A DNA stretch of 64,000 nucleotides from IMG/VR virus record IMGVR_UViG_3300032242_002920, positions 32,001 to 96,000 of that record; one strand, given 5' to 3'. A model generated the notes under the pieces. It searched no databases, was not told the DNA's origin, and was given only the letters and a program-made list of their open reading frames with translations. The translations under genes were made by a program, and so were the position numbers. The DNA comes from a virus. This document shows positions 16,261 through 63,060 of this stretch, in pieces; position 1 is the first letter of the stretch; each line of letters opens with the position of its first letter.

Positions 16261-17076
16261 ATGGCTGATAAAATTAAATATACTACACAAGACGCAGCTT
16301 TTTTAAATAGACAAGTTGGTCCACGACCTGATTTGGGTTGGGCGGTTAATAGTCCAGACATCAGTGCTAATGATAGTAAAAATTGGACCGTTCAATTAGT
16401 TAAAGCAAATAAAAAATATCTTAACCTTTGGGTTGAAGAAGCAGATATTGATTTTTCAATGTCCGGAACTACTGGTCAAAGTCGTTATAGAAGAGAATTT
16501 TATCCGCACTCTTTTAACGAACCTACATTGGTGCTAAAGGGTCGTATGCCAAATCAAAGAGAGTATAACAAATTAGCGGCGTTTGTTCGCGAGTCTCATT
16601 CAGAAGCACTTAATGCCAATGTTAATTACTCTGAAAAATCAGCAGGAAAGAAAGCTTACCCTACGGTTTCTTTAATTATGAGACCCCATGCCCCTGAAAA
16701 TCGTTTTCCAAGAACTCAAAAAGGTGGTCACCGGGGAATGCAACTTGAAGGATACATTAAATCGATTGCTGCGGGAGCACAAAAATTTGAATTCGCACCT
16801 GCATTTGAAATTCAATTTATTGTTGCGTCATCCGCCGTTTCTTCTGGAATTGGAATTTATCAAGATGATCTCGACCCCGGCTCTCAAGTTGTTAGTTGGA
16901 TGTCTATTTTTAAAGACGGTTATCTTGGTGCCAAATCTGGTTATCAAATTAAAGAGGCGATTGGACAAAGTACTCCGGGTTATTATATTAATGCTGCCGG
17001 AGAATCCGTTATTGAGCAACCTAAAGGTGCGCAAATTAATCACCGAGGCGTGGTTCCAAACGATTTAAGTAAATAA
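16261..17076 (+). CDS. Baseplate protein
   Basis: Abuts neighbours in the baseplate cluster. Confidence 0.5.
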   Translation: MADKIKYTTQDAAFLNRQVGPRPDLGWAVNSPDISANDSKNWTVQLVKANKKYLNLWVEEADIDFSMSGTTGQSRYRREFYPHSFNEPTLVLKGRMPNQREYNKLAAFVRESHSEALNANVNYSEKSAGKKAYPTVSLIMRPHAPENRFPRTQKGGHRGMQLEGYIKSIAAGAQKFEFAPAFEIQFIVASSAVSSGIGIYQDDLDPGSQVVSWMSIFKDGYLGAKSGYQIKEAIGQSTPGYYINAAGESVIEQPKGAQINHRGVVPNDLSK

Positions 17077-17077
17077 T

Positions 17078-18700
17078 ATGAAAAGACTAGTTTATTCGCC
17101 TTCAGTTAAAGCGTGGGTAAAATCTGATTCAGGAGTAATAGATTTAAGTCCATATATCACTGATTGCAAAATTGAAAGAAAAGTAAATGATATAAGTACC
17201 GCTGAAATTACCTTTAGAAATCCTAGGGTATTACAAGACGGTAAACCTCGTTTTATGTTCACCGAAAAAACAAAAAACGATGGAACTGTTGGACCCGTTT
17301 TTCATCCTATGGACCCCATCACAATTGTTTTAAAAAGACTTGATGGCAAACCCGTTCAAGTATTTACGGGATATTGCGACAACGTGCCATATGTTCAGTT
17401 GTTTCCCGGAACTGCAAAAATTACTGCATCTTGTACTCTTAAAAGACTTCTTTACACTTATTGGGATCCGGGACTTGTTTTTGTTCGTGATTTTATGAAA
17501 AATTATGGATGGAGTTTAGGTGGCGATGGAGTAGTTCGACGCGGAAGTGGTGATTCGTATTTAACAGACACCACAAAAATTACTAATAATCAATTAAATG
17601 ATTCCAGTATTGGCAATTTGGTTTATGTTGTTTTAAATGAAATCGGTGGCTGGGATCCAAGTAATATTTTTATTGAACCACTTCCAGAAAATATTGGCGG
17701 AATTATCAGTCAATTATTTGATCAAATTGTAAGCGATAATAAAAAAGTTAATGCTGACATAGCAAAAGTGTTACAAGACATTGTTGGTAGCGGATCTTTT
17801 GGTACGTCAGGAACAGGATCGGGTATTTCAAATCAAACCACCGGCACGGTAACCATTATTGGTGACAGTATTACATACTACAGTGAAACTGCAATTCAGA
17901 ATGCAATATCAAACGCTCAAATTTTTGCGCAGATAGGAAAGCATATGAAACTTGATGCGGGAACAACTAACGGTGGAGATTCTGGATTAAAAATTCTTAA
18001 AGATAATAAAAATTCGCTTGGCGATGTTGTTGTTATTGCCTTGGGAACAAATGATGAAGACGTAAAAAATCCATCAACGTTTGAAGGTTGGATCGATCAA
18101 GCAATGCAAATTATTGGTTCTACTAAAACCGCCGTATTTGTTACTGTAACAAATAATGATAATGTTAACAATGCTATTAGAAATAGGGTTGCAAAATTTA
18201 ATAATTTAAAAATTGCCGATTGGAAATCAAAGGCACAACTTGGACCAGATGGCATTCACCCTACCGCTCACGGTCAAAAGGTATTTGCAAAAACTATAGC
18301 AGATGTTGTTAATTCAATTTTACCTGCAAACCCAGAAGCTACTACGGGAACTGCGGTTTACGAAGGAATTCGTATGGCGTCTTGGATTGTTCCAATTCTT
18401 AAATGGGCAAGGCAACATGGTTGGAATGGAACAATTATAAATGGATATAGATCATACGCTAAGCAAAAAGAACTTCATGACGCATGGATTGCAAGAGGCA
18501 AAACTGGTCTTCCGGCAGCCGCGCCGGGTACAAGTAATCACGAAGGAAGCGAGTTTCCTCGCGGTGCTGTCGATGTAGATGAAGCTTCCGCTCCCGAATT
18601 AAGTAGAATTCTTTTAAGTGGGCCATACGCTACTACTTTGGTATACGCTGGAGATGCTGACGTTGTTCACTTTTCACATCCTCATAACGGTGGATTTTAA
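17078..18700 (+). CDS. Baseplate hub N-terminal paralog 1 + SGNH esterase + M15 (VanY-like) Zn peptidase
   Basis: Shared ~240 aa MKRLVYSP domain; GDS, GTND and DGIH SGNH blocks; GYRS...SNHEG...AVD...DVVH M15 motifs. Confidence 0.8.
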   Translation: MKRLVYSPSVKAWVKSDSGVIDLSPYITDCKIERKVNDISTAEITFRNPRVLQDGKPRFMFTEKTKNDGTVGPVFHPMDPITIVLKRLDGKPVQVFTGYCDNVPYVQLFPGTAKITASCTLKRLLYTYWDPGLVFVRDFMKNYGWSLGGDGVVRRGSGDSYLTDTTKITNNQLNDSSIGNLVYVVLNEIGGWDPSNIFIEPLPENIGGIISQLFDQIVSDNKKVNADIAKVLQDIVGSGSFGTSGTGSGISNQTTGTVTIIGDSITYYSETAIQNAISNAQIFAQIGKHMKLDAGTTNGGDSGLKILKDNKNSLGDVVVIALGTNDEDVKNPSTFEGWIDQAMQIIGSTKTAVFVTVTNNDNVNNAIRNRVAKFNNLKIADWKSKAQLGPDGIHPTAHGQKVFAKTIADVVNSILPANPEATTGTAVYEGIRMASWIVPILKWARQHGWNGTIINGYRSYAKQKELHDAWIARGKTGLPAAAPGTSNHEGSEFPRGAVDVDEASAPELSRILLSGPYATTLVYAGDADVVHFSHPHNGGF

Positions 18701-19978
18701 ATGAAACGCCTTGTATATAGCCCTTCAGTTAAAGCGTGGGTAAAAACTGATTCTGGTGTTGTAGATCTTAGTCCGTATATTATTAACTGTACAATTAAAA
18801 GAAATATTGACGATGTTAGTAAAGCTGAAATTACTTTTAGAAATCCTAAAGTAATTCAAAGCGGTAAAAACAGATTCATGTTTACTGAACACGAAGATGA
18901 AAATGGTCAAATCAAACCAGTTTTTCACCCCATGGATCCTATCACAATTGTTATGGAAAGAGTTGCAAATAAACCCGTTCAAGTATTTACCGGTTATTGC
19001 GATACAACTCCATATGTTCAATTATTTCCGGGTGCCGCTAAAATTAACGCGTCTTGTACTTTAAAGAGACTTTTGTATACGTACTGGGATCCCGGCCTTC
19101 TTTTTGTTCGCGATTTTATGAAAAATTACGGATGGACTATTGGTAATAACGGTCAAGCCGTAAATGAAAAACTTTCGACAAAAGCAGAAAATTTTGCTGA
19201 TAAACCGGCTAAATCGGTCAATCTTAATGATTCTAGTATCGGCAATTTAGTTTATGCAACTCTTAATGAAATTGGCGGCTGGGACCCAAGTAATATTTAC
19301 ATTCAACCTTTGCCCGACAATATTGCAACAACTGTATCCAAACTTTTTGACGAAATTGTTCAAGAAGACAAAAATATTGAAGAAAGTTTAGCGGATGTTA
19401 TGCAAAAAATTGTTGGTAGTGGAAGTTATGGAACTCTAGGTACCGTGAATGGTAGCAGTCAAGCATCTACTGGGGGTGGTGGAAGCGTTGGAACGGCCCC
19501 CGTTGCGGCGGCAAATGCCCCACAATTATTACAAAAATTAATTAACGAATGTAATCGTATTGCAAATCATAGGACCTATTATTCTCAAGCGCACAGAAAT
19601 GGTTCCGCTGGTGTTCAACAACCAAATAAAGCCAGTGACGGGTCGTATTATTTTGACTGCTCTAGTTTTGTATCATATATAATGAATTTCATCGGACATT
19701 ATGGGGGCAATATGACTTGGGCAGAAGTTTCAGGATGGTTTCAAAGTAGCTGGGGTAAACAGGGCAAGGGTAAATACTTAACTGTTTGGGCTAACCCGGA
19801 GCACGTTTTCTTAGAGATTAAAGATCAAAATGGATCGTCTAAATTTATTGGAACTTCGAGTTATATTGAGGGGCAAAATCCCGATTCAAATAGTCCCGTT
19901 GGTCACAGTCATACAGTTGGTTGGATGGGCAGTTATACCACTGATGCGTTTACTCCTAAGCACATTCCGGGGTTTTAA
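18701..19978 (+). CDS. Baseplate hub N-terminal paralog 2 + NlpC/P60 peptidase
   Basis: Shared MKRLVYSP domain; FDCSSFVSY...WANPEHVFL. Confidence 0.8.
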   Translation: MKRLVYSPSVKAWVKTDSGVVDLSPYIINCTIKRNIDDVSKAEITFRNPKVIQSGKNRFMFTEHEDENGQIKPVFHPMDPITIVMERVANKPVQVFTGYCDTTPYVQLFPGAAKINASCTLKRLLYTYWDPGLLFVRDFMKNYGWTIGNNGQAVNEKLSTKAENFADKPAKSVNLNDSSIGNLVYATLNEIGGWDPSNIYIQPLPDNIATTVSKLFDEIVQEDKNIEESLADVMQKIVGSGSYGTLGTVNGSSQASTGGGGSVGTAPVAAANAPQLLQKLINECNRIANHRTYYSQAHRNGSAGVQQPNKASDGSYYFDCSSFVSYIMNFIGHYGGNMTWAEVSGWFQSSWGKQGKGKYLTVWANPEHVFLEIKDQNGSSKFIGTSSYIEGQNPDSNSPVGHSHTVGWMGSYTTDAFTPKHIPGF

Positions 19979-21207
19979 TGAAACGATTAGTTTATTCACC
20001 GTCAATTAAAGTTTGGGTAAAAACAGATTCGGGCGTTGTTGATTTAAGTCCATATGTCGTCAATTGCAGAATTGAACGCAAAATTGATGACGTAAGTTTT
20101 GCCGAAGTTGAATTTCGAAATCCTAAAATTACTCAAAATGGTAAAAATCGATTTATGTTTACTGAGCATGAAACTGACGGTAAGGTACTGCCAGTTTTTC
20201 ATCCCATGGATCCAATTACCATAGTTGTTGAAAGATTAGCTGGCAAACCCGTACAAGTGTTTACTGGTTATTGTGATACGGTTCCAGACGTTCAATTATT
20301 TCCGGGAACGGCAACAATTAAAGCATCTTGTACTCTTAAAAGATTACTTTATACGTACTGGGATCCGGGACTTCCTTTCGTTCAAGAATTTTTAAAAAAT
20401 TATGGATGGAATTTAGACATGACAACCGGTAAAGCTGGAAAACCATTAAGTACGGAAAATCAAAATGTTTCTAAAGTAAATAAATTAAACGATTCTAGTA
20501 TTGGTAATTTGGTTTACGCGGTTTTAAATGAAATCGGCGGTTGGGATCCGAGTAATATTTTTATTCAACCATTACCCGGAAATATTGCAGACATCGTTTC
20601 AAAACTTTTTGATGAAATAGCAAAAGAAAACAAAAATGTTAATAAAGAAATTGCAGACGTTTTACAAAAAATTGTTGGCAATGGTACATTTGGAACAGCT
20701 TCAGCAGGAGGCGGAGGTGGTAGCGCTCCCGGAGGCGAGCCGGGAACAAGTGGCGCGGTTCATAATTTAAGACAAAAAATCAACATTATACGCGCATCCG
20801 CAAATCAATATGGCATTCCACCTGAGTTTCCTCTTGCAGTTGCTATTGTTGAAACCAGTTTGGAAGATAATGCGGATACTGGAACTTATCATGGTTGGTA
20901 CCAATGGGCAAGTTCTGAATCCTATGTTGGTCAACCAACTTTGGATATGTCAAAGGCGCACGACCTTGGTTATGCATCAGGGCAATTTTGCAGAGCAGCC
21001 AAAGCTCGTGAAAAATACAAACAATATGGGTACCCAACATGGGCTAGATCTTGTCAGTTAAATCCATCTAGCGTTAATAACGCTGCGACGCATGGAATAT
21101 ACGGGGCCTTTAATCCAAACCCAGATAGCAATGCATTGTACAGTGACGCTAGATTTCCAGAATTTATTAATCAAGCTAAAGAATATTTAAGACAGTATCC
21201 AAACTAG
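19978..21207 (+). CDS. Baseplate hub N-terminal paralog 3 + lysozyme-like/lytic transglycosylase domain
   Basis: Shared MKRLVYSP domain; ASANQYGIPPEFPLAVAIVETSL...GWYQ resembles SLT motifs I and II. Confidence 0.75.
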   Translation: MKRLVYSPSIKVWVKTDSGVVDLSPYVVNCRIERKIDDVSFAEVEFRNPKITQNGKNRFMFTEHETDGKVLPVFHPMDPITIVVERLAGKPVQVFTGYCDTVPDVQLFPGTATIKASCTLKRLLYTYWDPGLPFVQEFLKNYGWNLDMTTGKAGKPLSTENQNVSKVNKLNDSSIGNLVYAVLNEIGGWDPSNIFIQPLPGNIADIVSKLFDEIAKENKNVNKEIADVLQKIVGNGTFGTASAGGGGGSAPGGEPGTSGAVHNLRQKINIIRASANQYGIPPEFPLAVAIVETSLEDNADTGTYHGWYQWASSESYVGQPTLDMSKAHDLGYASGQFCRAAKAREKYKQYGYPTWARSCQLNPSSVNNAATHGIYGAFNPNPDSNALYSDARFPEFINQAKEYLRQYPN

Positions 21208-21256
21208 CAAAGTAGCATTACCTTTAGAGTAATAAGAGAAAGATAGGAATAAAATT

Positions 21257-22777
21257 ATGAGAGCAAATGCGCCCGCAGGCGGACCGGCAACACCGGCAGT
21301 AAAGAAACCCGCTAATATTTTTCCACAAGGAACTAGTCAAAACGTTCATAAGATTCAAACTGATGCGGGAACGTATGGTGCGTCGGTTAACGGAAATACA
21401 GTTAAATATCAAACGTATGTAATACACACTGCGGGAACCCATTTTGATGTTGCAGCCCCTGTTAAATGTTTAGTCGCATCAGTTAAAAATTCGGGTAATA
21501 ATAAAAAAGTTTTAATTCAATTTTTAGAAACCATCGGTCTTTATAAAGCCGGTGATTATATGTCAATTTCTGCGCTTTCTGGCAGTATTAGCATTGGACA
21601 TCAATACAAAAAGGGCGCAGTTATTGGAACCAGTAGTGATAATACGGTTTCTATTGCTATGAATCCATCAGGAGCCAAAAATGGACGTATTACTCTTGAT
21701 GGAGCGGCTGACCCAGCAAAATTTGTTGATTATGCTCAAGGAGTGGCCGATGCAGCCGGGAATCCAACTAGTGCAACTAGTGCAACTGGAACTAATAATG
21801 ATACTGCTAGCGCTGGTGGAACGGACGTAGGTTCCATTGCAAAAGCTGCGGCATTTTCTACATTTTTTACACTGCCGGGTATCTTCAATACTTATGAATC
21901 TCAAAGTTTAACTGGTCAAAGAAGCTTAATGAATGATCAGCCACTTATGCCATTTATTCAACAATTATGTGGAGCTTGCCTTAGGCATTTTATGTCTACT
22001 CCTACCGGCGATTTCTTTGCATTTTATCCAGATTATTTTGGCGGATTAGGTAAAACCGCCTATTGGCTTATTGAAGACATTGAAGTTATAAATGGAAGTA
22101 TTGAATTATCTGACGATCAATTGGCAACTCATGTTTACGTTGTTGGAGACATTGTTGGAGCGCCATCCGGTGCGCTTGGAGGTAATGGTATTGATACATT
22201 AGATCGTTTAAACACGGGTGGAGTGGTAACTATTTTCAATGCATTTATGGCTGATTTCTTAAATGGTACAGATGTTTCTGGAGCCGCTAAAGTAGATAAA
22301 ACAAAGTACCCAACTCTTGCTGACAAAGCTGACGCCATCGCGTTCCTTCAAAAGTATGGGGCCAGACCATATTACGAAGAACAACCTACAGTTCGAGCGC
22401 CCATTTATGAAGCATTTTTAGCTTATCAAAAATTTTGTTTAAAATGGTCCGATCAATTTAAAACGACGTTTGAATTTACTTTTATGCCTGAACTTTATCC
22501 GGGCGGTTTAGTTGCATTTCCAGAGCATGGTTTGCAATGTTATGTTAACTCCGTAACGCATAACTGTTCTTACGAAACAGGATTTACTACAACTGCTGAA
22601 TTATCAGCGCCCTCTGCATTTAAGGGTGGCGATGGCAATCCACTTGATCCGGATAAAGCATGGGTTCACGCTGGCATGATTAGGTCTTGGCCAACCGATG
22701 ACAATGTTGGCGCTTTTACAGGAGCTACGGATACGGATCCAGCCCAACAAAAAACTAAGGGCAAGGGCAAGAAATAA
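21257..22777 (+). CDS. Baseplate hub C-terminal half, with a degenerate M23-like N-terminal region
   Basis: LMNDQPLMPFIQQLC...FMSTPTGDFFAFYPDYFG...FTFMPELYPG...YVNSVTHNCSYETGFTT is typical of hub/late-control-D C-termini. Confidence 0.7.
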   Translation: MRANAPAGGPATPAVKKPANIFPQGTSQNVHKIQTDAGTYGASVNGNTVKYQTYVIHTAGTHFDVAAPVKCLVASVKNSGNNKKVLIQFLETIGLYKAGDYMSISALSGSISIGHQYKKGAVIGTSSDNTVSIAMNPSGAKNGRITLDGAADPAKFVDYAQGVADAAGNPTSATSATGTNNDTASAGGTDVGSIAKAAAFSTFFTLPGIFNTYESQSLTGQRSLMNDQPLMPFIQQLCGACLRHFMSTPTGDFFAFYPDYFGGLGKTAYWLIEDIEVINGSIELSDDQLATHVYVVGDIVGAPSGALGGNGIDTLDRLNTGGVVTIFNAFMADFLNGTDVSGAAKVDKTKYPTLADKADAIAFLQKYGARPYYEEQPTVRAPIYEAFLAYQKFCLKWSDQFKTTFEFTFMPELYPGGLVAFPEHGLQCYVNSVTHNCSYETGFTTTAELSAPSAFKGGDGNPLDPDKAWVHAGMIRSWPTDDNVGAFTGATDTDPAQQKTKGKGKK

Positions 22778-24720
22778 TGGCTATTAAACATTTTGTTAAT
22801 CCATCGTTGGGTCCTAGACAAATGGGGCTTATTACAACTGTTGAACCTGCAACTCGCAAAATTGAAGCAAAATTAAAAGATGGTGGAGAGATTGCAGTTT
22901 CGCTCTTTGATATTCCTCCATTTTTTGTTTGGCCTAAAGTGGGCGACCTTTGGATTATTCGTAAAGATGGTGGATATTGGAAACTTGATACTAAAATTGA
23001 TACGGATAAAGAATACCCTGTAGATAATTTAAATGCAGGCGAGGGTAAAATTAGCGCGGACATTATCAAAACACCGTCTGGTAAAAACGTCGTCGTTGTT
23101 GATAAAACAAATGGCACTAACGGCCAAGTTGTTCAATATAAAGATGGCGCATGGATTCTTGGAGAAGTTGTAACCAGCGGAGGGTCCAGTACAGATATTC
23201 AGGCTACTGTAGCTGGGTCAGCCGCCGGAACAGATCCAACAGTAACAAAAAGAGTTGTTGGAACAACAACTTATTTTGATTTTACAATTCCTAGCGGAGC
23301 AACTGGCGCACAAGGTAATCCCGGAGCCGTTCAAACTGTTACCACATCTTCTGGGTCTGGTATCACAATTGGAGGAACCGGTGCTAATCCAACTGTAAGC
23401 ATTGACACAACAAAAGTTGCAACTTATAGCGGATCTACTCTTGCATCTGGAATCACATCATCTTCTTTAACCAAAATTGGCACATTGTCATCTGGCGCTG
23501 GAACGGCTTTTGTTAAAACAGACGGAAGCGGAAATTTAACTACTGATTCAAATACATATCTTACTGGCAACCAAACTATTACTATGTCAGGAGATGTTTC
23601 CGGTAGCGGTACAACTTCAATTACTAATATGGCAATTGGTTCTGGTAAAGTTACAGATTCTATGATTAATGCCGGTATAACTACCGGTAACGCCAGTCCT
23701 ACGTCGGGAGCCGCATCTTCGCTTCTTGTCAGCGCGGGGAACGCCCTTGGTTCTACAATTACTTCAACTAATCCAGTTATAGATAAATCATATCTTAATA
23801 ATACAATCGCTTCAACGGTTGATATTTCTACTGCCGCAATCTCGACTGGTACAAAAATTGTAAACATTGGAACCAATTCTGCTGCTGGTTCAACGACCAA
23901 TATTAATATTGGCTCGCAAGCAGGAACCGCTGGTTTAAATATATATTCTGGAGCGACAACTGCCGCAATGTCTTTTGGCGTATATGGATCGACGCCATTA
24001 ATTAGCTTCGGAACCAGTGCTTTGATAACTGACATTAATATGAATAGTCATAAAGTTACAAATGTTACAGATCCAACTTCCGCTCAAGATGCGACGACTA
24101 AGAATTATGTCGATTATAATGGAAGATTAAATTTTTCTACAACTGGTTACACTGCTAAGGCATCAATTGTGTGTGTGCAACAAAGACCGGAAATAGTTCA
24201 AGGTGTAACAAATATCAGTTTATCAACTGCGGGTTATACCTATTATGTCAAGTTTATTCCATCTACATCTATTACCGTTACTGCCGGATCTTCTACGGTT
24301 AAAGTATATAATACATTAAGCTCTAATTCAACTTTTAATGGTAAAATCAGATTTTATGATAGTTCGGGTAATTATTTGCTTAATTCTGGTTTAACTACAG
24401 TTGTAGAAACTTCTACAATTACATTAAGTGGAGGCGCGGGACTTAAAACTGGAACTTTTGGCGGAGGTATGACTGGCACCGCCTCTCTAACAGCGGGAAC
24501 GGTTTATTGGGCTGGAATTTGGGTTCCAACTACTGCAACTGGTACGGCCCCGGTTCTTTCTGATTCTTCATATTTACAAAATCAAGCTTGGTACGGTACC
24601 GGATTAACACTTGCTAATGCGGATTATTATGTATCAACTTCTACAAGTACCGGAAATCCACCCGCGACTATAACAGGTGCATCTGCAACTCAGGGTCCAT
24701 TTATTCTTATTACTCCATAA
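22777..24720 (+). CDS. Baseplate spike (gpV-like N-terminus) fused to a fiber-like extension
   Basis: N-terminal OB-like segment (GLITTVEP...WPKVGDLW), short collagen run, KVTNVTDPTSAQDATTKNYVD stalk motif, beta-rich C-terminus. Confidence 0.65.
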   Translation: MAIKHFVNPSLGPRQMGLITTVEPATRKIEAKLKDGGEIAVSLFDIPPFFVWPKVGDLWIIRKDGGYWKLDTKIDTDKEYPVDNLNAGEGKISADIIKTPSGKNVVVVDKTNGTNGQVVQYKDGAWILGEVVTSGGSSTDIQATVAGSAAGTDPTVTKRVVGTTTYFDFTIPSGATGAQGNPGAVQTVTTSSGSGITIGGTGANPTVSIDTTKVATYSGSTLASGITSSSLTKIGTLSSGAGTAFVKTDGSGNLTTDSNTYLTGNQTITMSGDVSGSGTTSITNMAIGSGKVTDSMINAGITTGNASPTSGAASSLLVSAGNALGSTITSTNPVIDKSYLNNTIASTVDISTAAISTGTKIVNIGTNSAAGSTTNINIGSQAGTAGLNIYSGATTAAMSFGVYGSTPLISFGTSALITDINMNSHKVTNVTDPTSAQDATTKNYVDYNGRLNFSTTGYTAKASIVCVQQRPEIVQGVTNISLSTAGYTYYVKFIPSTSITVTAGSSTVKVYNTLSSNSTFNGKIRFYDSSGNYLLNSGLTTVVETSTITLSGGAGLKTGTFGGGMTGTASLTAGTVYWAGIWVPTTATGTAPVLSDSSYLQNQAWYGTGLTLANADYYVSTSTSTGNPPATITGASATQGPFILITP

Positions 24721-54473: not shown

Positions 54474-54555
54474 GGTGGGGTACCAAAGCGGCCAACTGGG
54501 GCGGGCTGTAAACCCGCTGTCTCTGACTTCGCAGGTTCGAATCCTGCCCCCACCA
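54474..54555 (+). tRNA. tRNA-Tyr(GTA)
   Basis: GGTGGGG/CCCCACC acceptor, GCGGG-CT-GTA-AA-CCCGC, long variable arm, GGTTCGAATCC. Confidence 0.93.
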
Positions 54556-54583
54556 CTTTTCAACGAATACTTCATCATAATAT

Positions 54584-55033
54584 ATGATGAATGAATATCA
54601 GCGCAAAGAAAATCCTCTTTTAAAGGAACGAAAGCAGTCTGGACCTGTCAAAATTGGCGACATTATTAATTCTTTTAATGATAAGATTGCCATAAAATTA
54701 ACCAATACAATTGGTTCAATGAAAATGTTTTGGTTTATGGCTATCGTTATGACTTTATGGATGGCTGGTATTGGAGAACTACTGTTTCATGATCCATACC
54801 CATTTTCGCTCATGTTGCTTATTTTCGCTGGCGTCTTTCAAGCACTAGCTATGGTGGCCATTATGGTCGGACAAAATATTCTCAGTAAAGCTTCTGATGC
54901 ATTATCAGAAATGACTTATAAAGACGCAGAGGCGATTTTAGATGAAGTGGAAGAAATCCATGAACATCTTCATCATCAAGATGAAATCCTTAAATCGTTA
55001 CTGGAGAATATTAATGTCCGAAAAAATGTCTAA
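54584..55033 (+). CDS. DUF1003-like membrane protein
   Basis: DKIAIKLTNTIGSM...DPYPFSL...IMVGQN. Confidence 0.75.
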   Translation: MMNEYQRKENPLLKERKQSGPVKIGDIINSFNDKIAIKLTNTIGSMKMFWFMAIVMTLWMAGIGELLFHDPYPFSLMLLIFAGVFQALAMVAIMVGQNILSKASDALSEMTYKDAEAILDEVEEIHEHLHHQDEILKSLLENINVRKNV

Positions 55034-55406
55034 TTTTGCAGTTTGGTTTTCTAAAAAAATCTTCACATGGCAGAGCCTTTTGTTGCATGTTGCGATATAT
55101 GCAACAGCTTGGTTTGTTGAAGGCGGCGATCATCATCTTTTCCTTGATTGTATTTCTATGGAGGCCGTTTTTGTAACCCTTCTTGTTGGTATGGCAACAG
55201 CCAGAGCAGAACAACAAAGGGAAGAGTTAGCCGCCCTTGATCGTCATCGGGACCAAATGGATCTTGAAACGGATCAAAATACAAACAAACTTATTAATAT
55301 GCAAGCTGAAGAAATTAAAGAACTTCATCAAGTTGCTAAAGAAATTCATAATCTTTCAACAGAAGTTAGAAATCATGTTAAAGATAATACAAGGCATAAC
55401 AGTTAA
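55014..55406 (+). CDS. Divergent DUF1003-like membrane protein
   Basis: ISMEAVFVTLLVGMA...DLETD plus a coiled-coil tail. Confidence 0.55.
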   Translation: MSEKMSNFAVWFSKKIFTWQSLLLHVAIYATAWFVEGGDHHLFLDCISMEAVFVTLLVGMATARAEQQREELAALDRHRDQMDLETDQNTNKLINMQAEEIKELHQVAKEIHNLSTEVRNHVKDNTRHNS

Positions 55407-58123
55407 TGACCATTAATTCTAGAAAAATTCCATTAGGTTTTGCGGGATCTAATTTTCGTCCTTGGGAATATAAAGTTGCTGGGTTTCGTATGCTTGCCAA
55501 TGAATACGGTAGGGCTAGTTCTACAACTAGCACTACTTTAGTTGATACGTCCAAATCTTGGGCCGTAGACGCATATAAAGATAAATATGTTGTTGTAGGT
55601 AGTTCTGTTGGTCCTCAAACCGTTAAAATTGTTAGCAATACAAGTAATACTTTAACAGTTGCAAGTTGGCCAGTTGCGTTGCCAACAAGCGCAATTATGT
55701 CTGATGGTAGTAAACTTATATATGAAATACAAAATGGTGCAAAAATTATGGCAACGGCGACATCTTCAACCGGAACTAGCGTTACGGTTAGTCCTATTGC
55801 TCCTAATACCTCTTTAAATTTAATTTCTGGAAAATCTTATACCGTTGTTGGACAAGGTATACCAGTTTATTATACTGGTTCTTCAGTCACCCCGCCAGTC
55901 ATATTAAATTCAAAAGGTCAAAGTATGACTCATTCTGCATCAACGGTTTCTTTAATTAAATACACCCCTACAACATCCAACCCTTCTACCATTACTTTAC
56001 CAATCGCTCCTTTGACGCCTTTAAATGGTATTGTTCTTTATTTTTTTGAAAATGAACTTAGCATTGAATGTCAACTAATGTTAATGGCTAATTCGGGAGT
56101 AGAATCATTTAGAACGCCATTATTTTGGAAAGATATTGAACCAAATGCTCCAATTGGAGAAACTAGAAGTTATAAATTTTCTCCGGCAAATGACGGCGTT
56201 GATTATGATATTTTTTATTCAATGTCAGCGAGTTTGGGAATGAACGCAATGATTCGCCTTGGTAACCCTCCAGACCATGAAATAGATTATCCGTATAGTA
56301 AAAATTATTTTGGTCCAGTTTCATTAGATGTAACGGGATATGGCGGACAATTTATCACAGTAAAAACTGCAATAGACGGTTCATATGATCATAATTTAAA
56401 CAATTCTTATGCCGTTTTTAAAAACATGTTTGTAACTGGAACAAATGTGCCAGCAAATACGTATACAACACCTTTAACTGAAAATCAAGTAACGCTAGGA
56501 ACAACAACTTACAATATCGTCGTTAACAAAAATACTCCGGAAACTTCGGTTAGAACCGGCGTTGCATCGGATGGATCAACTGCATACATTATTAAATTAA
56601 ATAATAATGTTCCTTCTGGAGATGTAACAATTTCTGCAACTATCAAAGTGGATGGAAATTTAGTTACAAGTCCGTTTCCATATTACAATACTGATTCGTC
56701 AAACCCAATTAATTTTAGTTCAGAAAACGATCTTAGAGCTTTTTGTTTACAAATGGGAAGAAAAGGCGGAACCGTACCAAAAAACTTTAAAAATTTTGGC
56801 GATTTTATGAATGTATTAATTAATCGTTATGGCGCAAACGGAACAATTTGGCAATCAGAAAACAATTTATGGTCAAGACCAATTCAAAAAACTTTGTCTG
56901 ATGCCCACTCTGGTTCATTAACATCCGGCAGTTTTAAATTAATTTCTAACATTGCGGATTGCAAAGGATTTGTTGTTGGTGCGACAATAGAATCATCCGC
57001 AAGCGGATCAATTCCAGCTACCTCAACAAACGGCAATGCAGCTTTTCTTTCTCCTAAAACTAAAATTTTGTCAATTGCTAAAGACACTAGTTACACAACA
57101 CAAAATGCAATTTATTTAAGTAAATTTACTAATACTGCATCAGCCTCAAATCAATCAATTACTATTAAATATCCACCAATTCAAAATTGGCAAATTTACA
57201 ACGAGGTTCCCTCAGATGGTGCTGATGGAACTTTTTATTGGAGAATAAACTCTGGAACAATTCATTCAAGTAATATTTTAATTGGCGTCAACTGGCCTCA
57301 GTATAGAACAACTGCAAGTGTTGTCAATTCGTCAAATAATACAAGTTCAGTTTACACAACTAATATGGAAAATGGTTGGGGTCCAAGTTTTTCATCCTTG
57401 CTTAGCACTGCAAAAGCTGAAGCTCATTCAACCGACCCCAATGCAAGTATTGTTACCTCAGGCATCAACTCTGAACCGAGTTCTTCAAACACCGCATCGT
57501 TGTTTACTAAGAAAAACGCAAAAAATAGTTTTGATAAAATTGCATTTCATCTTTATGGACCTTATACAACTTCGGCTGGAGCAGTTAATTCCGGACCTTA
57601 CACAGTAACCGGTCAAGAAACACAAAGAATTATAACTTTACTTGAAAAAAATTACGGTAAAAATACGCCATCATATAATATAACACCTGATGTAATTATT
57701 AGCGAATACGGATGGAGTACCGCGCCTAAAACTGCTGGATCGGTACCCGCTGGCGGAAATGGATATTCATATAATGTTCACGATCAATTTATTGCTAACG
57801 CCACGCCAAATTCCCTTGGGTATATTACTACCATGTTTGATAAAAATTGGCATACAATAAATCATAAAATTTATACCGCTCGAAAAATGATGTCAGAAAA
57901 TACAAATTTGATAAATTTTGAATCAGTTATGTATTTTAAATGGGCAAGTGATGAAGGAAGAGAAATTAATGATTCTCCATTTTTAGATAACTGGAGGGGT
58001 CCAAATTTTTACATGTCTCCGTCAACTAATTCAAGTGTACCGGGATCAACTATTCAATTTTATATGAAACCTGCGGCTAAATCATTACAAGATGCGGCGT
58101 TGACACTTCAAGGTAGAATCTGA
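55406..58123 (+). CDS. Clan GH-A (GH39/GH5-like) glycoside hydrolase with inserted virion-type beta domains
   Basis: GVESFR..LFWKDIEP, LINRYG, WQIYNE (acid/base), DPNASIV, IAFHLY, ISEYGW (nucleophile). Confidence 0.7.
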   Translation: MTINSRKIPLGFAGSNFRPWEYKVAGFRMLANEYGRASSTTSTTLVDTSKSWAVDAYKDKYVVVGSSVGPQTVKIVSNTSNTLTVASWPVALPTSAIMSDGSKLIYEIQNGAKIMATATSSTGTSVTVSPIAPNTSLNLISGKSYTVVGQGIPVYYTGSSVTPPVILNSKGQSMTHSASTVSLIKYTPTTSNPSTITLPIAPLTPLNGIVLYFFENELSIECQLMLMANSGVESFRTPLFWKDIEPNAPIGETRSYKFSPANDGVDYDIFYSMSASLGMNAMIRLGNPPDHEIDYPYSKNYFGPVSLDVTGYGGQFITVKTAIDGSYDHNLNNSYAVFKNMFVTGTNVPANTYTTPLTENQVTLGTTTYNIVVNKNTPETSVRTGVASDGSTAYIIKLNNNVPSGDVTISATIKVDGNLVTSPFPYYNTDSSNPINFSSENDLRAFCLQMGRKGGTVPKNFKNFGDFMNVLINRYGANGTIWQSENNLWSRPIQKTLSDAHSGSLTSGSFKLISNIADCKGFVVGATIESSASGSIPATSTNGNAAFLSPKTKILSIAKDTSYTTQNAIYLSKFTNTASASNQSITIKYPPIQNWQIYNEVPSDGADGTFYWRINSGTIHSSNILIGVNWPQYRTTASVVNSSNNTSSVYTTNMENGWGPSFSSLLSTAKAEAHSTDPNASIVTSGINSEPSSSNTASLFTKKNAKNSFDKIAFHLYGPYTTSAGAVNSGPYTVTGQETQRIITLLEKNYGKNTPSYNITPDVIISEYGWSTAPKTAGSVPAGGNGYSYNVHDQFIANATPNSLGYITTMFDKNWHTINHKIYTARKMMSENTNLINFESVMYFKWASDEGREINDSPFLDNWRGPNFYMSPSTNSSVPGSTIQFYMKPAAKSLQDAALTLQGRI

Positions 58124-58129
58124 TATAAT
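58100..58129 (+). promoter_or_regulatory. Consensus promoter for the tRNA cluster
   Basis: TTGACA-18 nt-(TG)TATAAT. Confidence 0.7.
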
Positions 58130-58136
58130 AATATAA

Positions 58137-58210
58137 CGGGATGTAGCGCAGTCTGGTAGCGCATTCGCTTTGGGAGCGAAGGGTCGTAGGTTCAAATCCT
58201 ACCATCCCGA
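58137..58210 (+). tRNA. tRNA-Pro(TGG)
   Basis: CGGGATG/CATCCCG; TTCGC-TT-TGG-GA-GCGAA. Confidence 0.93.
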
Positions 58211-58215
58211 TCATA

Positions 58216-58287
58216 GGGCGATTGGCGCAGCGGGAGCGCAACTCGTTTACACCGAGTAGGTCATTGGTTCGAATCCAATATCGCCCA
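58216..58287 (+). tRNA. tRNA-Val(TAC)
   Basis: GGGCGAT/ATCGCCC; ACTCG-TT-TAC-AC-CGAGT. Confidence 0.93.
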
Positions 58288-58292
58288 TTTGA

Positions 58293-58334
58293 TTTACACC
58301 GAGAGGGTCGCAAGTTCGAATCTTGCATCGCCCA
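58293..58334 (+). pseudogene. 3' half of a second tRNA-Val(TAC)
   Basis: TTTACACCGAG-AGGGTC-GCAAGTTCGAATCTTGC-ATCGCCCA, with no 5' half. Confidence 0.75.
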
Positions 58335-58357
58335 TAATAATCTGCTACAATGCAGGT

Positions 58358-58525
58358 ATGCACTTTGACATTTTAAATTATGTTACACACCTTGGGTTTG
58401 AAGGTCTTGCTGCTATAGGCGGTTATTACGCTCGCGGCTTTTGCAAGCATACTTGGCACAGGGTCACTGTTGCAGTAGTTTGGTCAATTGTTTCGACTTT
58501 CCTACTAGTATCAGTTGTAGGATGA
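58358..58525 (+). CDS. Small membrane protein (probably leaderless)
   Basis: 55 aa with a hydrophobic C-terminus; ATG 6 nt after TGCTACAAT. Confidence 0.55.
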   Translation: MHFDILNYVTHLGFEGLAAIGGYYARGFCKHTWHRVTVAVVWSIVSTFLLVSVVG

Positions 58526-58530
58526 TATTT

Positions 58531-58612
58531 ACCCGAATGGCGGAATAGGTAGACGCGTTGGATTTAGGATCCAATGCCGCAAGGCGTGGGGGTTCGATTC
58601 CCTCTTCGGGTA
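58531..58612 (+). tRNA. tRNA-Leu(TAG)
   Basis: ACCCGAA/TTCGGGT; TTGGA-TT-TAG-GA-TCCAA; long variable arm. Confidence 0.92.
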
Positions 58613-58736
58613 TTAGGTTGCCCATCAATGTAATAACACATGTTGGTGAAACCGCCTAATCCATAGATGAAAAGGTGAAATTAATTTATGGATAATGATT
58701 CACTCATAGGCAAGCGGGTAAGCCTTGGCAACCCTT

Positions 58737-58808
58737 TGGCGCGTAGCTCAACGGCAGAGCTTTCGACTGTTAATCGAATGGTTGTAGGTTCGAATCCTAC
58801 CGCGCCAG
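58737..58808 (+). tRNA. tRNA-Asn(GTT)
   Basis: TGGCGCG/CGCGCCA; TTCGA-CT-GTT-AA-TCGAA. Confidence 0.93.
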
Positions 58809-58811
58809 TTT

Positions 58812-58900
58812 GGAAAGATGGCAGAGTGGTTGAATGCGTCGGTCTTGAAAACCGAAGTAGGGCGCGAGTTCTACCGAGGGTTCGAATCCCTCTCTTTCCT
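58812..58900 (+). tRNA. tRNA-Ser(TGA)
   Basis: GGAAAGA/TCTTTCC; TCGGT-CT-TGA-AA-ACCGA; long variable arm. Confidence 0.93.
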
Positions 58901-58903
58901 TAT

Positions 58904-58975
58904 GCCGCCATCGTCTAATGGTCAGGACATGGGTTTTTCACACCTAAAACCGGGGTTCGACTCCCCGTGGCGGTA
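58904..58975 (+). tRNA. tRNA-Glu(TTC)
   Basis: GCCGCCA/TGGCGGT; TGGGT-TT-TTC-AC-ACCTA. Confidence 0.9.
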
Positions 58976-59015
58976 CTTGCAGTAAACAAAAATCTATGCT
59001 ATAATAGATACACAT

Positions 59016-59087
59016 CGCGGGGTGGAGCAGTGGTAGCTCGCTAGGTTCATATCCTAGAGGTCGAAGGTTCGATTCCTTCTCCCGCTA
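59016..59087 (+). tRNA. tRNA-fMet(CAT), initiator type
   Basis: CGCGGGGTGGAGCAG start, C1:U72 mismatch, CTAGG-TT-CAT-AT-CCTAG. Confidence 0.88.
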
Positions 59088-59199
59088 CTATCTCAGGTCG
59101 TCAGGTTGCCCCGCCTGAGATGAACGCCCCGGATGAGCCTCTGATTCAAGCTCGCCGGGGCTATGTATTTTCTAAAAATTGTGCTATACTTGCAATCAT

Positions 59200-59283
59200 G
59201 CTCGGATGGTGGAATTGGCATACACGGCTGACTTAAAATCAGCTTCCCGGTTGGGATTGCGGGTTCGAGTCCCGCTCCGAGTA
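59200..59283 (+). tRNA. tRNA-Leu(TAA)
   Basis: GCTCGGA/TCCGAGT; GCTGA-CT-TAA-AA-TCAGC. Confidence 0.93.
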
Positions 59284-59319
59284 CTTTAGAATATTCATAG
59301 ATCAATCGCATAATAAGTG

Positions 59320-60693
59320 ATGAGTGCTAATGGACAACTGGCGGCGAGCGAACTAGCTCCAATTACAGGCGGAGGTCATCTTCGTAAAGATGCCGCTCTT
59401 GCTTGGAATGGTTTTGCAAAATATTGCCTTGCCGTTCATGGCGCTCATGTTGCTGTTAATGATTCTTATCGCGTTCTTGGTCATCCGGGAGATTATGCTA
59501 GGGGAATTTGGAGCCAATGGGCCGCGTGGGAAAGATACAAAGCGGGTGGCAACTTATCCGCTGTTCCGGGATCTAGCAACCACGGCTGGGGATTGGCAGT
59601 AGACGTGCCACCAGCAACTCAGGATCTTATTCATAAATATGGAGATGGATTTGGGTTCAATAAAGCTAAATCCGACGCTCCAACAGAAAATTGGCATTTT
59701 CGTTGGGATGGGTATATTCGTCCCGACCTTAAACTTCGTTGGTGTTCTTCATCAACTGGCGCGCCCGTACTACACCCCGGATATAGAGGTCCAGCGGCTA
59801 TCACTCTTAAGAAGAGGCTTCGTGCTTGGGGTTATTTCCCTCTTGCAATGAGGATTGATAATAATTATGCTGGTAAAATCGTTCCAATGGTTCAGAGTTT
59901 TCAGTCCCATCATGGACTTGCTCCTGATGGTGTTGTTGGCCCAACTACTTGGCATGAACTTAATAAGGTCCCACCTCCCGGACCCAAGCCAATTGTAAAA
60001 CCCAAGCCCAAACCCCCTGTTCCTGCACCCAAACCTAAGCCGGTTCCGGTGACTCCCCCTAAACCTAAACCAGTACCAAAAAGCAAGTATTTTGCTGATG
60101 TTTATGAAGGTGATCAGTTTAATGCTTCTCAGTATAAGGCTGGCAATTATCCTTTGATTGTTCTTAAGGCATCAGAGGGAGCAACTTACAAAGATCAAGC
60201 TTTTAATGCCAGATTTCGTGATGCTGGGCATATTGGACTTACTAGGTTTATTTATCATTTTGCTCGCCCCGGAAATGGAAATACCCCAATTGCGGAAGCG
60301 CAAAATTTTGTTGCTGCTATTAATGGTGCTGGCAAACTCAATCCTGATGATCGCCTTGTTCTTGATTGGGAAGATCCTAAGTTTGAAAATAAAAATGGCG
60401 ACAAATGGATTGCAGATTTTTGTCACGAAGTTGGCAAACTTGGTCATACCGTTCGTGTACTTTATAGCGGTGGTTGGTATCTCCCCGGCACAGTAACTAA
60501 ATGGCCCGTTGATCATACTGGTAAGGCTCTCAAGTATTGGCATAGCGCTTATACCGCCGACCCATCATCTAATGTACCACCTATGGCTAAACCAAATCTT
60601 TGGGCTTGTCAATATACCGATGGTACCGTAGGCACACTTGAGCCTAAGCAGGCTCGGGGAATTGGACATTGTGACATGTCCTTCCTAGTTTGA
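59320..60693 (+). CDS. Endolysin: M15 peptidase + PG-binding domain + Pro/Lys linker + GH25 muramidase
   Basis: DSYR...SNHGWGLAVD...ENWH; FQSHHGLAPDGVVGPTTW; PKP repeats; ADVY...LKASEG...YHFA...LDWED. Confidence 0.88.
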   Translation: MSANGQLAASELAPITGGGHLRKDAALAWNGFAKYCLAVHGAHVAVNDSYRVLGHPGDYARGIWSQWAAWERYKAGGNLSAVPGSSNHGWGLAVDVPPATQDLIHKYGDGFGFNKAKSDAPTENWHFRWDGYIRPDLKLRWCSSSTGAPVLHPGYRGPAAITLKKRLRAWGYFPLAMRIDNNYAGKIVPMVQSFQSHHGLAPDGVVGPTTWHELNKVPPPGPKPIVKPKPKPPVPAPKPKPVPVTPPKPKPVPKSKYFADVYEGDQFNASQYKAGNYPLIVLKASEGATYKDQAFNARFRDAGHIGLTRFIYHFARPGNGNTPIAEAQNFVAAINGAGKLNPDDRLVLDWEDPKFENKNGDKWIADFCHEVGKLGHTVRVLYSGGWYLPGTVTKWPVDHTGKALKYWHSAYTADPSSNVPPMAKPNLWACQYTDGTVGTLEPKQARGIGHCDMSFLV

Positions 60694-60707
60694 TATAATA
60701 TAGTTGC

Positions 60708-60781
60708 GCCGAAGTAGCTCAGTTGGCCAGAGCGCCTCACTTGTAATGAGGATGCCGGGGGTTCGAATCCCTCCTTCGGCT
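60708..60781 (+). tRNA. tRNA-Thr(TGT)
   Basis: GCCGAAG/CTTCGGC; CCTCA-CT-TGT-AA-TGAGG. Confidence 0.93.
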
Positions 60782-60825
60782 CTTATAATCTTATCTCCTG
60801 ACATTAATTATTGAAAGGAGGTTTC

Positions 60826-61143
60826 ATGGACCCACAGAAAATTATTTCGGCTGTTCAAGGACTTATTGCGTCTATTACCGCTGGCCTCGTTTCATTTGGT
60901 ATTCTCGGTGGTGCGCAAGCATCTGCAATTCAAGCTTTTATTGTCTCTGCAATTGCTTTTGTTTCTGCTATTGGTATTCATTCCGTTCGTTCTGCAACTT
61001 TAAGTGCGGAAGATGCTGCCACTTATGATCCTACTGCTGTTCCGCCAGCAAATTTAATTGTTGACCCATCTGCCGATGCATCCGCAGTTACTCCCGATGC
61101 ATCAACAATTGATGGACCTACCTATAACTCTGAAGGAGTGTGA
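60826..61143 (+). CDS. Holin-like two-TM protein with an acidic tail
   Basis: GAAAGGAGG RBS; downstream of the endolysin; two hydrophobic helices. Confidence 0.65.
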   Translation: MDPQKIISAVQGLIASITAGLVSFGILGGAQASAIQAFIVSAIAFVSAIGIHSVRSATLSAEDAATYDPTAVPPANLIVDPSADASAVTPDASTIDGPTYNSEGV

Positions 61144-61158
61144 TCCTTATCTAGCGGG

Positions 61159-61194
61159 TCCCGGCTTGAAATACAGCCGGGATTTTGCTATGAT
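61159..61194 (+). terminator. Intrinsic terminator with embedded promoter
   Basis: TCCCGGCT-TGAAATAC-AGCCGGGA-TTTT; TTGAAA(61166)-17-TATGAT(61189). Confidence 0.7.
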
Positions 61195-61204
61195 GTTTCT
61201 ACTT

Positions 61205-61277
61205 GCCCTTGTAACTCAATTGGTAGAGTAGGAGACTTTTAATCTCAAGGTTGTAGGTTCGAGTCCTACCGGGGGCA
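61205..61277 (+). tRNA. tRNA-Lys(TTT)
   Basis: GCCCTTG/CGGGGGC; GAGA-CT-TTT-AA-TCTC. Confidence 0.9.
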
Positions 61278-61279
61278 TT

Positions 61280-61573
61280 ATGAATAAATATATTACGGGA
61301 ACAAAACAAAAAGTTATAAATGTTCATAAGGAAAACGCAGATTGCCGCAAGTATGGTTGTTGCGTTCATAGTCCTTCTGATCATAATATGAAAAATTGGC
61401 CTACTCATTGGCGCGACGATCACGGTATGATGGAGAGAATTTGCGAGCATGGTGTTGGTCATCCCGATCCAGATCACATTGGTTGGGTATCTCGTAATGT
61501 TGGTTCTAGGGCTGCTAAGATTGTATCTATACATGGCTGCGACGGTTGTTGCAGAAAGGAAAATAATGAATAA
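61280..61573 (+). CDS. Cys/His-rich hypothetical protein of a type seen in actinophages
   Basis: CCVHSPSDH...MERICEHGVGHPDPD...HGCDGCC. Confidence 0.7.
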   Translation: MNKYITGTKQKVINVHKENADCRKYGCCVHSPSDHNMKNWPTHWRDDHGMMERICEHGVGHPDPDHIGWVSRNVGSRAAKIVSIHGCDGCCRKENNE

Positions 61574-61886: not shown

Positions 61887-61894
61887 TAATTTAT

Positions 61895-61965
61895 TGGGGG
61901 ATCGTCTAAAGGCAGGACAACGGTCTTTGGAACCGTGAATCTAGGTTCGAATCCTAGTCCCCCAG
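61895..61965 (+). tRNA. tRNA-Gln(TTG)
   Basis: TGGGGGA/TCCCCCA; ACGGT-CT-TTG-GA-ACCGT. Confidence 0.92.
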
Positions 61966-62054
61966 TTTATAAAATTCTTAACAATTATAACTGAATAGAT
62001 CGCAACATAATGATTAGAAGACAAGTTAATTTTCAACATAAGGAGGCACAAGTT

Positions 62055-62276: not shown

Positions 62277-62284
62277 GGACAAAT

Positions 62285-63052: not shown

Positions 63053-63060
63053 GCAGTTCA

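Follow-up and report, generated by a model that had tools for sequence, protein, structure and literature searches.

A probable split baseplate hub with paralogous N-halves bearing different putative enzymes in an uncultured contractile-tailed phage

Baseplate hubs of the gp27/Mu gp44 class sit at the tip of the phage tail tube. In T4 the lysozyme is carried on a separate spike protein, gp5, and the Mu hub gp44 bears no enzyme; neither hub is split or paralogous. Enzyme-armed hubs are known as single-gene homotrimers, examples being gp110 of phage 812, gp147 of Bacillus phage 0305phi8-36 and the corresponding protein of the Bxz1/Myrna phages, and a simple split of the hub is found in Eggerthella phage LE2-3. 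Here we describe a locus from IMG/VR record IMGVR_UViG_3300032242_002920, an uncultured phage, of which we analyzed positions 32,001 to 96,000 (a stretch of 64,000 nucleotides, hereafter the window). Its hub appears to be divided among four genes: three paralogous N-halves (N1, N2 and N3), each extended by a different putative cell-wall enzyme, and one gene (C) that encodes the remainder of the hub.

According to the accessible sections of the source, gp110 of phage 812, together with its phage K homologue, is likewise a trimeric gp27-like hub (domains I-IV) that holds a peptidoglycan hydrolase, the CHAP 'cleaver', at the tip of the tube (PMC13433997). It is a single chain from one gene, with its enzyme at the C-terminus, and forms a homotrimer, whereas the window hub is split. 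Bacillus phage 0305phi8-36 gp147 is a 'hyperplastic' gp27 homologue that combines a conserved hub core with interchangeable domains that cleave peptidoglycan and whose movement is attributed to intragenomic recombination; gp147 is a single gene, and the accessible text describes no split or paralogous hub halves (PMC2147016). T4 gp27-gp5 and Mu gp44/P2 gpD resemble the window hub in the fold of domain I, the fold of the later domains and their position at the tail-tube tip, but the window proteins have no sequence-family match to them. The evolved VgrG paralogues of type VI secretion systems offer the nearest concept, as several gp27/gp5-like, trimer-forming paralogues with differing effector extensions occur in one genome; these belong to a bacterial secretion system and are whole, whereas the window genes are a virion gene set and are split. 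Mixed VgrG trimers have reportedly been found in Vibrio cholerae.

What appears to be new is the combination of a split with stable paralogy of the halves, each bearing a different enzyme, in a sizeable uncultured clade. A full-text literature search yielded, within the portions of text that it reached, no account of a hub divided into halves with paralogues, which is not proof that there is none. The accessible portions of PMC3314691 and PMC1796659 deal with endolysins and tape-measure motifs and contain nothing on the hub protein of the window.

Two kinds of gene for one hub

All four genes lie on the plus strand. N1 (17078-18700; 540 amino acids, aa) starts 1 nucleotide (nt) past the end of the upstream gene, its TAA stop directly adjoins the ATG of N2 (18701-19978; 425 aa; gap 0), and N2 overlaps N3 (19978-21207; 409 aa) in a TAATG junction (gap -1). 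A spacer of 49 nt (21208-21256), with a purine-rich ribosome-binding region, precedes C (21257-22777; 506 aa) and is the sole non-abutting junction in the set. The open reading frames and junctions are exactly those given in the original prediction, a reading of this stretch from its letters that had proposed three abutting genes with a shared N-terminal domain of ~240 aa. This domain (~243 aa; aa 1-243 in N1) includes long invariant blocks and is 68-72% identical in amino acids between pairs, and the parts downstream of a Gly/Ser-rich linker are mutually unrelated. The whole IMG/VR record (132,001 bp, CheckV 82% complete) holds exactly three N-domains and one C-half.

The three copies share 70-72% of nucleotides, differ at 60-70 synonymous codons and 65-77 amino-acid codons per pair, and have no exact nucleotide match longer than 24 nt, which marks them as old paralogues and bears out the earlier claim that they are not an assembly duplicate. 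That the repeats are an assembly error, or that two of the three copies are decaying, functionless duplicates, is barely credible. The record is admittedly a metagenome assembly, and the separately assembled Logan contig (31,413 bp), which is identical to the window over 16800-23000 and free of joints, may share its source sample. Set against this, all copies are intact open reading frames that diverge to the extent given above and contain no long identical tracts, every copy bears a different, intact-looking enzyme module, and the same layout occurs in nine other contigs as well as in a ~91%-identical variant, with the order N2(part)-N3-C, from a second sample of the same study. This variant aligns with window positions 19109-23000 and shows 351 differences and 14 gaps over 3.9 kb, including small frame-preserving indels at 19478 and 21765 and, at 20417/20421, a +1/-1 pair in which one shift offsets the other.

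The N-halves and C correspond to opposite ends of one protein family. In PHROG 2810 (952 positions; annotated as 'virion structural protein / minor tail protein'), the N-halves cover profile positions 47-307 (N1, E 1.8e-36 over 47-262; N2, E 2.6e-35; N3, E 3.3e-41) and C covers 632-920 (E 9e-62), each window protein matching one end only. A tblastn search with C retrieved 224 isolated-phage records, mostly cluster C mycobacteriophages along with phages of Gordonia and Rhodococcus and one Eggerthella phage, and all 223 isolated-phage records with the N-domain hold one copy each. In Myrna and Catera the homologue, gp132 (963 and 948 aa, respectively), is a single gene located between the tape measure and baseplate genes. 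N3 aa 1-284 aligned to Myrna gp132 49-300 (E 3e-36) and C aa 152-453 to 640-924 (E 7e-48), and Myrna gp132 carries an NLPC_P60 domain at aa 529-617, between the two homologous regions. Myrna and Catera gp132 are thereby alike to the window proteins in the N-domain (30% identity), the C-half (36-39%), the place in the tail operon and the insertion of enzyme modules between hub parts; they differ in being one polypeptide of 948-963 aa in one copy per genome, whereas the window has a set of four genes that includes three paralogues. Fused genes encoding 926 aa (locus L014) and 905 aa (L015) in two uncultured relatives also hold both hub parts. The alignment with Bxz1-like single-gene hubs that the original prediction had proposed as a check thus places the halves on one protein, in PHROG 2810, in Myrna gp132 and in the L014 and L015 fusions.

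Eggerthella phage LE2-3, an isolated phage, already has the same hub in split form, as LE23_104 and LE23_105, which correspond to an N-half joined to a lysozyme module (Phage_lysozyme2, E 1.6e-29) and to a C-half. It differs from the window in having just one N-half and one C-half, is distant (28% identity) and is annotated only as 'tail protein'. An exhaustive profile search found 752 representatives of the family at E<=0.001. Among the best 150 of these, 80 are shorter than 700 aa and 70 are at least 800 aa long; C-half motifs occur in 0 of the 80 and in 70 of the 70. The family is therefore large, with roughly half of its best 150 representatives split.

The position of the genes agrees with a hub. 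By PHROG profile matches, a sheath, a tube-like protein, a chaperone and a tape measure are encoded upstream, and a phrog_2669 baseplate protein and a phrog_6 wedge subunit (gp25-like, J-like) downstream. The hub genes accordingly lie between the tape measure and the gp25-like/J-like baseplate genes of a contractile tail, and the order of tail genes is that of Myrna gp128-gp136.

We modeled N3 and C with AlphaFold2 from our own alignments (134 and 114 sequences, respectively) and compared the models with solved structures by Foldseek and VIA-align. The N3 model has a mean predicted local distance difference test score (pLDDT) of 69, with residues 1-125 mostly above 90 and the enzyme module poor (below 50); the mean for C is 81. 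N3 aa 1-126 matched hub domain I, the N-terminal tube-like beta-barrel, with Foldseek probability 1.00: Z-scores were 10.3 for the Pa193 baseplate chain, 9.6 for the pyocin R2 hub (residues 1-103; root-mean-square deviation, rmsd, 2.8 over 99 aligned), 9.3 for Neisseria 3d37 (6-95), 9.1 for the phage 812 chain (1-129), 8.3 for MuSo2 (2-103), 7.7 for T4 gp27 (4-118) and 6.9 for Mu gp44 (3-92). C aa 190-453 (21824-22615) matched later residues of such hubs, namely Mu gp44 128-337 (Z 8.7, rmsd 4.9, 193 aligned), the Milano hub 165-366 (Z 8.5), 3d37 134-339 (Z 8.4), the phage 812 chain 201-621 (Z 8.2) and the pyocin R2 hub 136-325 (Z 8.0), with Foldseek E-values down to 6e-7. The later hub domains are thus present on a separate polypeptide, and one phage 812 baseplate chain matches both window halves. 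Because N3 and C map to successive ranges of the same hubs, they represent complementary, non-overlapping parts of one hub fold. Two earlier claims hold here: the shared domain is hub-like (Z of about 7-10 to domain I of pyocin R2, phage 812, MuSo2, T4 gp27 and Mu gp44), and the fourth gene supplies the rest of the hub, its model giving Z 8-9 to the later residues of the same hub proteins.

The predicted structures also support binding of the two halves to each other. A model of one N-domain with C aa 186-470 gave an interface score (ipSAE) of 0.73 (0.73, 0.71 and 0.74 in separate runs), whereas none of the three controls scored above 0.00; at least 51% of contacts were common to the runs, and the partner had a pLDDT of 60 or more. 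In this model, N residues 29-37 are strand-paired with C 432-437, and the helical part of the N-domain (175-210) contacts C 226-257. Taken together, the concordance of fold, PHROG matches, fused homologues and gene position makes the split hub well supported.

Enzyme modules and their histories

The C-terminal modules of the N-halves are probably an SGNH-type esterase followed by an M15-like peptidase in N1, an NlpC/P60-like cysteine peptidase in N2 and an SLT-like module of lysozyme fold in N3, as judged from motifs and model comparisons. In N1, the putative esterase (aa ~261-401) shows the motifs GDS, GTND and DGIH in translation and is 55% identical to the first N-half of a related locus (L008). 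Lipase_GDSL_2 matched with E 3.9e-5 (24.7 bits, below the Pfam cut-off of 32.9) and VanY with E 2.1e-4 (21.5 bits, below the cut-off of 25). The best phmmer matches of N1 in the PDB were weak, to the OatA-type SGNH structures 5ug1/5ufy (E 0.04-0.05) and to the M15 protein YodJ (E 0.45), and candidate H, D and H metal residues of the M15/VanY-like part (aa ~440-540) were picked by eye in translation. Consistent with the OatA-like matches, the SGNH module may strip O-acetyl groups that block a glycosidase.

The N2 module (aa ~272-425) retains a Cys and a His that are invariant in all five homologous modules, from the window and four relatives. Its structure-atlas neighbors are 'peptidoglycan endopeptidase' clusters (template modeling, TM, scores of 0.61-0.68), in which NLPC_P60 is found in 11-25% of members, and PDB profile matches to CwlO were weak (E 0.4). 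The N3 module (aa ~256-409) has SLT clusters as structure-atlas neighbors (TM 0.65-0.71), a candidate catalytic Glu (E-T-S) picked by eye, and 34% identity to the first insert module of the fused L014 gene; among Pfam families it reached only Glucosaminidase, at E 0.044, and a phmmer search of the PDB gave a chance match only. Pfam at E<=0.01 returned nothing for N2, N3 or C (sub-threshold noise only at E<=5), and NCBIfam nothing useful for the proteins of the locus. The enzyme labels of the original prediction (SGNH+M15, NlpC/P60 and SLT-like) therefore remain plausible as labels, with sequence support that is weak, as SGNH and VanY fall below their cut-offs and NlpC/P60 and SLT come from structural neighbors.

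The C protein has a module of its own, which the original prediction overlooked. Residues 15-171 (21299-21769), separated from the hub C-half by a low-confidence linker, adopt a predicted LytM/M23 fold with Z 11.5-12.2 to LytM, SpoIIQ, the EnvC LytM domain, lysostaphin and phi29 gp13, and with 22-24% identity to SpoIIQ. The four zinc-ligand positions are Y, a gap, T and S, where the homologues from loci L013 and L023 have H, D, H and H; neither HxH nor HxxxD (zinc ligands HxxxD ... HxH) occurs in C aa 1-190, and Pfam M23 matched 4 of 12 related C proteins and not that of the window. As the zinc ligands have no match, the module reads as a degenerate LytM domain and not as an active M23 peptidase. 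The LytM factors EnvC, NlpD and SpoIIQ likewise have this fold without zinc ligands; they are cellular regulators or scaffolds, whereas the window domain is attached to a phage hub. The weld protein of phage 812 provides a precedent: according to the accessible sections of PMC13433997, its clip is a hydrolase-fold domain that is catalytically dead and lies in the baseplate core. The dead LytM domain, in what would be three copies per virion, may bind peptidoglycan or regulate a hydrolase, and could then act as a built-in regulator or peptidoglycan anchor akin to EnvC or NlpD.

Across relatives the modules vary widely. Among 24 N-half or insert modules, Pfam identified SLT in 5, SLT_2 in 4, Amidase_2 in 3, SLT_3 and NLPC_P60 in 2 each, and M23, DPBB_1, GDSL_2 and VanY in 1 each. 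A search for proteins of near-equal length with the C protein gave 270 clusters whose N-terminal modules are mostly M23, with some Amidase_2, NlpC/P60, Amidase_5 or VanY, and some of the contigs concerned hold two or three C-halves.

The N-domains and the modules attached to them have different histories. Paralogues of one genome lineage fall together in the N-domain tree (the window trio with support 92/89, the L013 trio with 100/99, L007 with L008 and L010 with L011), and one-to-one orthologues are found solely between close pairs. The NlpC/P60-like module of N2 is nevertheless 57-58% identical to that of L010/L011, and monophyly of the five N-domains that bear this module is rejected by the approximately unbiased (AU) test (difference in log-likelihood 136, p 1.6e-6), a group that was named after the tree had been seen. 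Grouping of N-domains by genome, with modules shared across genomes, implies either homogenization of N-domains within genomes or exchange of enzymes at the linker. The window copies show no sign of recent gene conversion (longest exact match 24 nt). Independent triplication in each lineage was held less likely than conversion or exchange, because the same enzyme modules recur across lineages. In the fused L014 gene, the N3-like module is followed by an NlpC/P60-like module resembling that of the third L023 C-half. We favor as the likely origin a cut between two inserted enzyme modules, which duplication and module replacement would have followed.

Layouts in relatives and assembly of the hub

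The arrangement of three N-halves and one C-half (3N+1C) is conserved in relatives, another point that the original prediction overlooked. It occurs in nine other uncultured contigs, seven from IMG/VR (40,448, 97,491, 45,366, 47,675, 127,398, 36,907 and 55,810 bp) and two from further metagenomes (L070 and L073), both close to a contig edge yet with all four genes present. Identity of the N-domain to the window drops to 44-54% in the other 3N+1C loci. A search with the C alignment identified 43 IMG/VR loci, comprising 32 fused genes, seven 3N+1C, one 1N+1C, one 2N+3C, one split pair accompanied by a fused gene (N+C+fused) and one fragment. Among 77 metagenome loci, several of which are the same contigs as the IMG/VR loci, the region is complete in 38: 29 fused, four 3N+1C, two 1N+1C, one 2N+3C, one 2N+2C and one N+C+fused. 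In the IMG/VR and metagenome loci examined, N-halves number three at most, as do C-halves.

Several of the rarer layouts can be described individually. At locus L010 (4231-4971), an N-half of 246 aa has no enzyme module; its L011 orthologue (385 aa) does have an enzyme and lies second instead of first, the first two genes being swapped between these close relatives. The opposite layout is found at L023 (6856-13649; the same as L032 and L077), where two N-halves (382 and 380 aa) accompany three C-halves (518, 517 and 465 aa), all with overlapping stops and starts; two of these C-halves have canonical M23 motifs and one an NlpC/P60-like module. Locus L036 (7139-12653; the same as L082) encodes N (393 aa) and C (515 aa) as a split pair and, immediately after it, has a complete fused hub gene (935 aa, with an M23 domain), and therefore both forms can coexist in one genome. 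On a 17.6-kb metagenome contig, L078 (3925-9100) has two N-halves (403 and 392 aa) and two C-halves (460 and 483 aa).

Junction spacing is also conserved. In all seven 3N+1C genomes examined, the gaps before N1, N2 and N3 range from -4 to +9 nt, and C is preceded by 18-54 nt, usually purine-rich. This spacer is suggestive of separate, perhaps higher, translation of C. In the window, N1 and N2 share a reading frame and are parted by one TAA followed by ATG, such that hypothetical read-through of this stop would yield an N1-N2 fusion. Joining of N3 and C by read-through was rejected, as the two genes are in different frames. Switching of an invertible or shufflon type was rejected because all copies are on one strand; no repeat search was made.

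We consider it likely that the four genes encode one gp27/Mu gp44-class hub that has been split and whose N-half paralogues are interchangeable. The ancestral gene would have been fused, with enzymes between its hub parts, and would here have been cut at that point. Each N-half would supply hub domain I, the tube-like beta-barrel, together with a helical subdomain, and the C-half the remaining hub domains; one N-half and one C-half would dock non-covalently and rebuild a hub protomer, and three such protomers would make up a ring capping the tail tube. As adaptors, the two halves would tether enzymes by flexible Gly/Ser linkers, and N1, N2 and N3 would be interchangeable occupants of three N-sites on a trimer of the single C-half. 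If so, virions most likely carry mixed and probably variable enzyme sets, each drawn from an SGNH esterase with an M15-like peptidase, an NlpC/P60-like endopeptidase and an SLT-like glycosidase. The analysis shows the structure of the genes, their homology to fused hubs, the hub fold with its complementary mapping, the degenerate LytM module, the conserved layout and the discordance between N-domain and module histories; from these we infer the trimeric ring, the mixing of paralogues, the enzyme activities and a higher output of C.

The geometry of known hubs bears on the question of mixing. In gp27-type trimers, domains I and III alternate in a pseudo-sixfold ring, according to the accessible sections of PMC13433997. 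By our own reasoning from this arrangement, a hub with one kind of C-half has three equivalent N-sites, which by default paralogues would fill in variable combinations. An obligate asymmetric hub, with exactly one each of N1, N2 and N3 on a C trimer and a fixed enzyme set in every virion, is unlikely, and such equivalence of the N-sites is one point against it. Several observations would suit it: exactly three N-halves are present in the window and the nine other contigs despite N-domain identity as low as 44-54%, neither half exceeds three copies at any locus examined, and the N genes abut or overlap while C alone follows a spacer in 7 of 7 genomes, as would fit a 1:1:1:3 output. Each N-domain also has a paralogue-specific variable loop (aa ~141-170; 17500-17590, 19120-19215 and 20400-20490), with 36-55% nucleotide identity compared with 70-87% elsewhere in the N-domain and low pLDDT at residues 165-171. 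Any specificity for position or partner might be determined by this loop, in which an obligate hub could encode its positions. A 1:1:1 ratio cannot arise from the 1N+1C, 2N+2C, 2N+3C and N+C+fused layouts of relatives, and therefore no fixed 3:1 rule applies to the family; moreover, one L010 N-half lacks an enzyme, and gene order differs between L010 and L011. The original prediction had offered a fixed 1:1:1:3 assembly and, alternatively, random mixing or recombination among the repeats, and it is the alternative that fits better. A related idea, that the threefold symmetry of the hub limits the number of N-half paralogues to three, and likewise that of C-halves in relatives with three of them, strikes us as doubtful.

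It is quite improbable that the paralogues do not mix at all, whether because each hub or virion uses one N-half type, giving three kinds of particle as a form of bet-hedging, or because one paralogue is structural and the others are, for example, free or ejected wall hydrolases. The paralogous VgrG1 and VgrG2 of Serratia do not mix, as they were reported not to assemble into heterotrimers under native conditions in the accessible part of the source (PMC4924876), and co-assembly of N-halves with bulky, differing enzyme modules could be sterically biased. On the other hand, the conserved blocks that make up the predicted interface with the C-half are retained in N1, N2 and N3 alike, no sorting mechanism is visible in the sequence, and N1-N3 are tightly coupled in one operon and therefore made together in the same cell.

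Several points weigh against a split hub with interchangeable N-halves. Presence in the virion, the trimeric state and paralogue mixing are proposals drawn from the genes and models of an uncultured phage. No hub family (e.g. Phage_GPD) was matched by sequence in Pfam (E<=0.01) or NCBIfam, and chance-level matches were all that the N-domain alignment retrieved in a profile search of the PDB, such that the hub assignment leans on predicted folds. The hub Z-scores of 7-10 are middling, a range for which the tool warns that matches may reflect a common arrangement. When the scoring tool was calibrated, 58 of 80 solved complexes attained the mark passed by the complex model, as did 2 of 110 mismatched pairs; these counts hold only roughly here because our own alignments were used, and part of the high score may stem from resemblance to single-chain hubs of known structure. 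Interface residues were not significantly more conserved among the paralogues (40 of 57 positions invariant, compared with 106 of 186 elsewhere; p 0.09), and this comparison is not used as support. The enzyme labels of N2 and N3 have no significant sequence-family match and the N3 module is poorly modeled, and the choice of the AU-test group after inspection of the tree belongs here as well.

In contrast to the single-gene homotrimers known so far, two duplicable adaptor halves would amount to a natural plug-in system at the contact between tail and cell wall, and the N-domain and C-half could serve as scaffolds by which hydrolases of choice are presented on phage tails. If the paralogues co-assemble, one threefold ring could bring together up to four or five different activities, and particles of one burst could differ in their enzyme sets, a form of bet-hedging over host range or wall type that is undescribed for phage hubs. 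Were the obligate heterotrimer true instead, every virion would have a fixed, ordered multi-enzyme drill (de-O-acetylase and peptidase, endopeptidase, glycosidase and dead LytM), and this would be the first phage baseplate hub composed of different subunits by design.

Affiliation of the phage and neighboring genes

On the reading favored here, the source phage is probably contractile-tailed and related to the Bxz1/Myrna actinophages. A megablast search with the 5.7-kb stretch found no match among isolated phages. The relatives and the structure-atlas neighbors point weakly to a host among the Actinomycetota for this uncultured phage.

Directly downstream of the hub, a gene encoding 647 aa (22777-24720) overlaps the stop of C (ATAATG) and has no family match. 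It occupies the place at which Myrna has two 'minor tail protein' genes. The protein gave weak fiber-like PDB matches (tail fiber gp9, E 0.003; phage hyaluronidase, E 0.05); as these were its only such matches, the name of spike was considered and not given. Farther along the window, 13 transfer RNA genes lie on the plus strand at 54474-63132, mostly at 58137-59284, as in large Bxz1-like phages.

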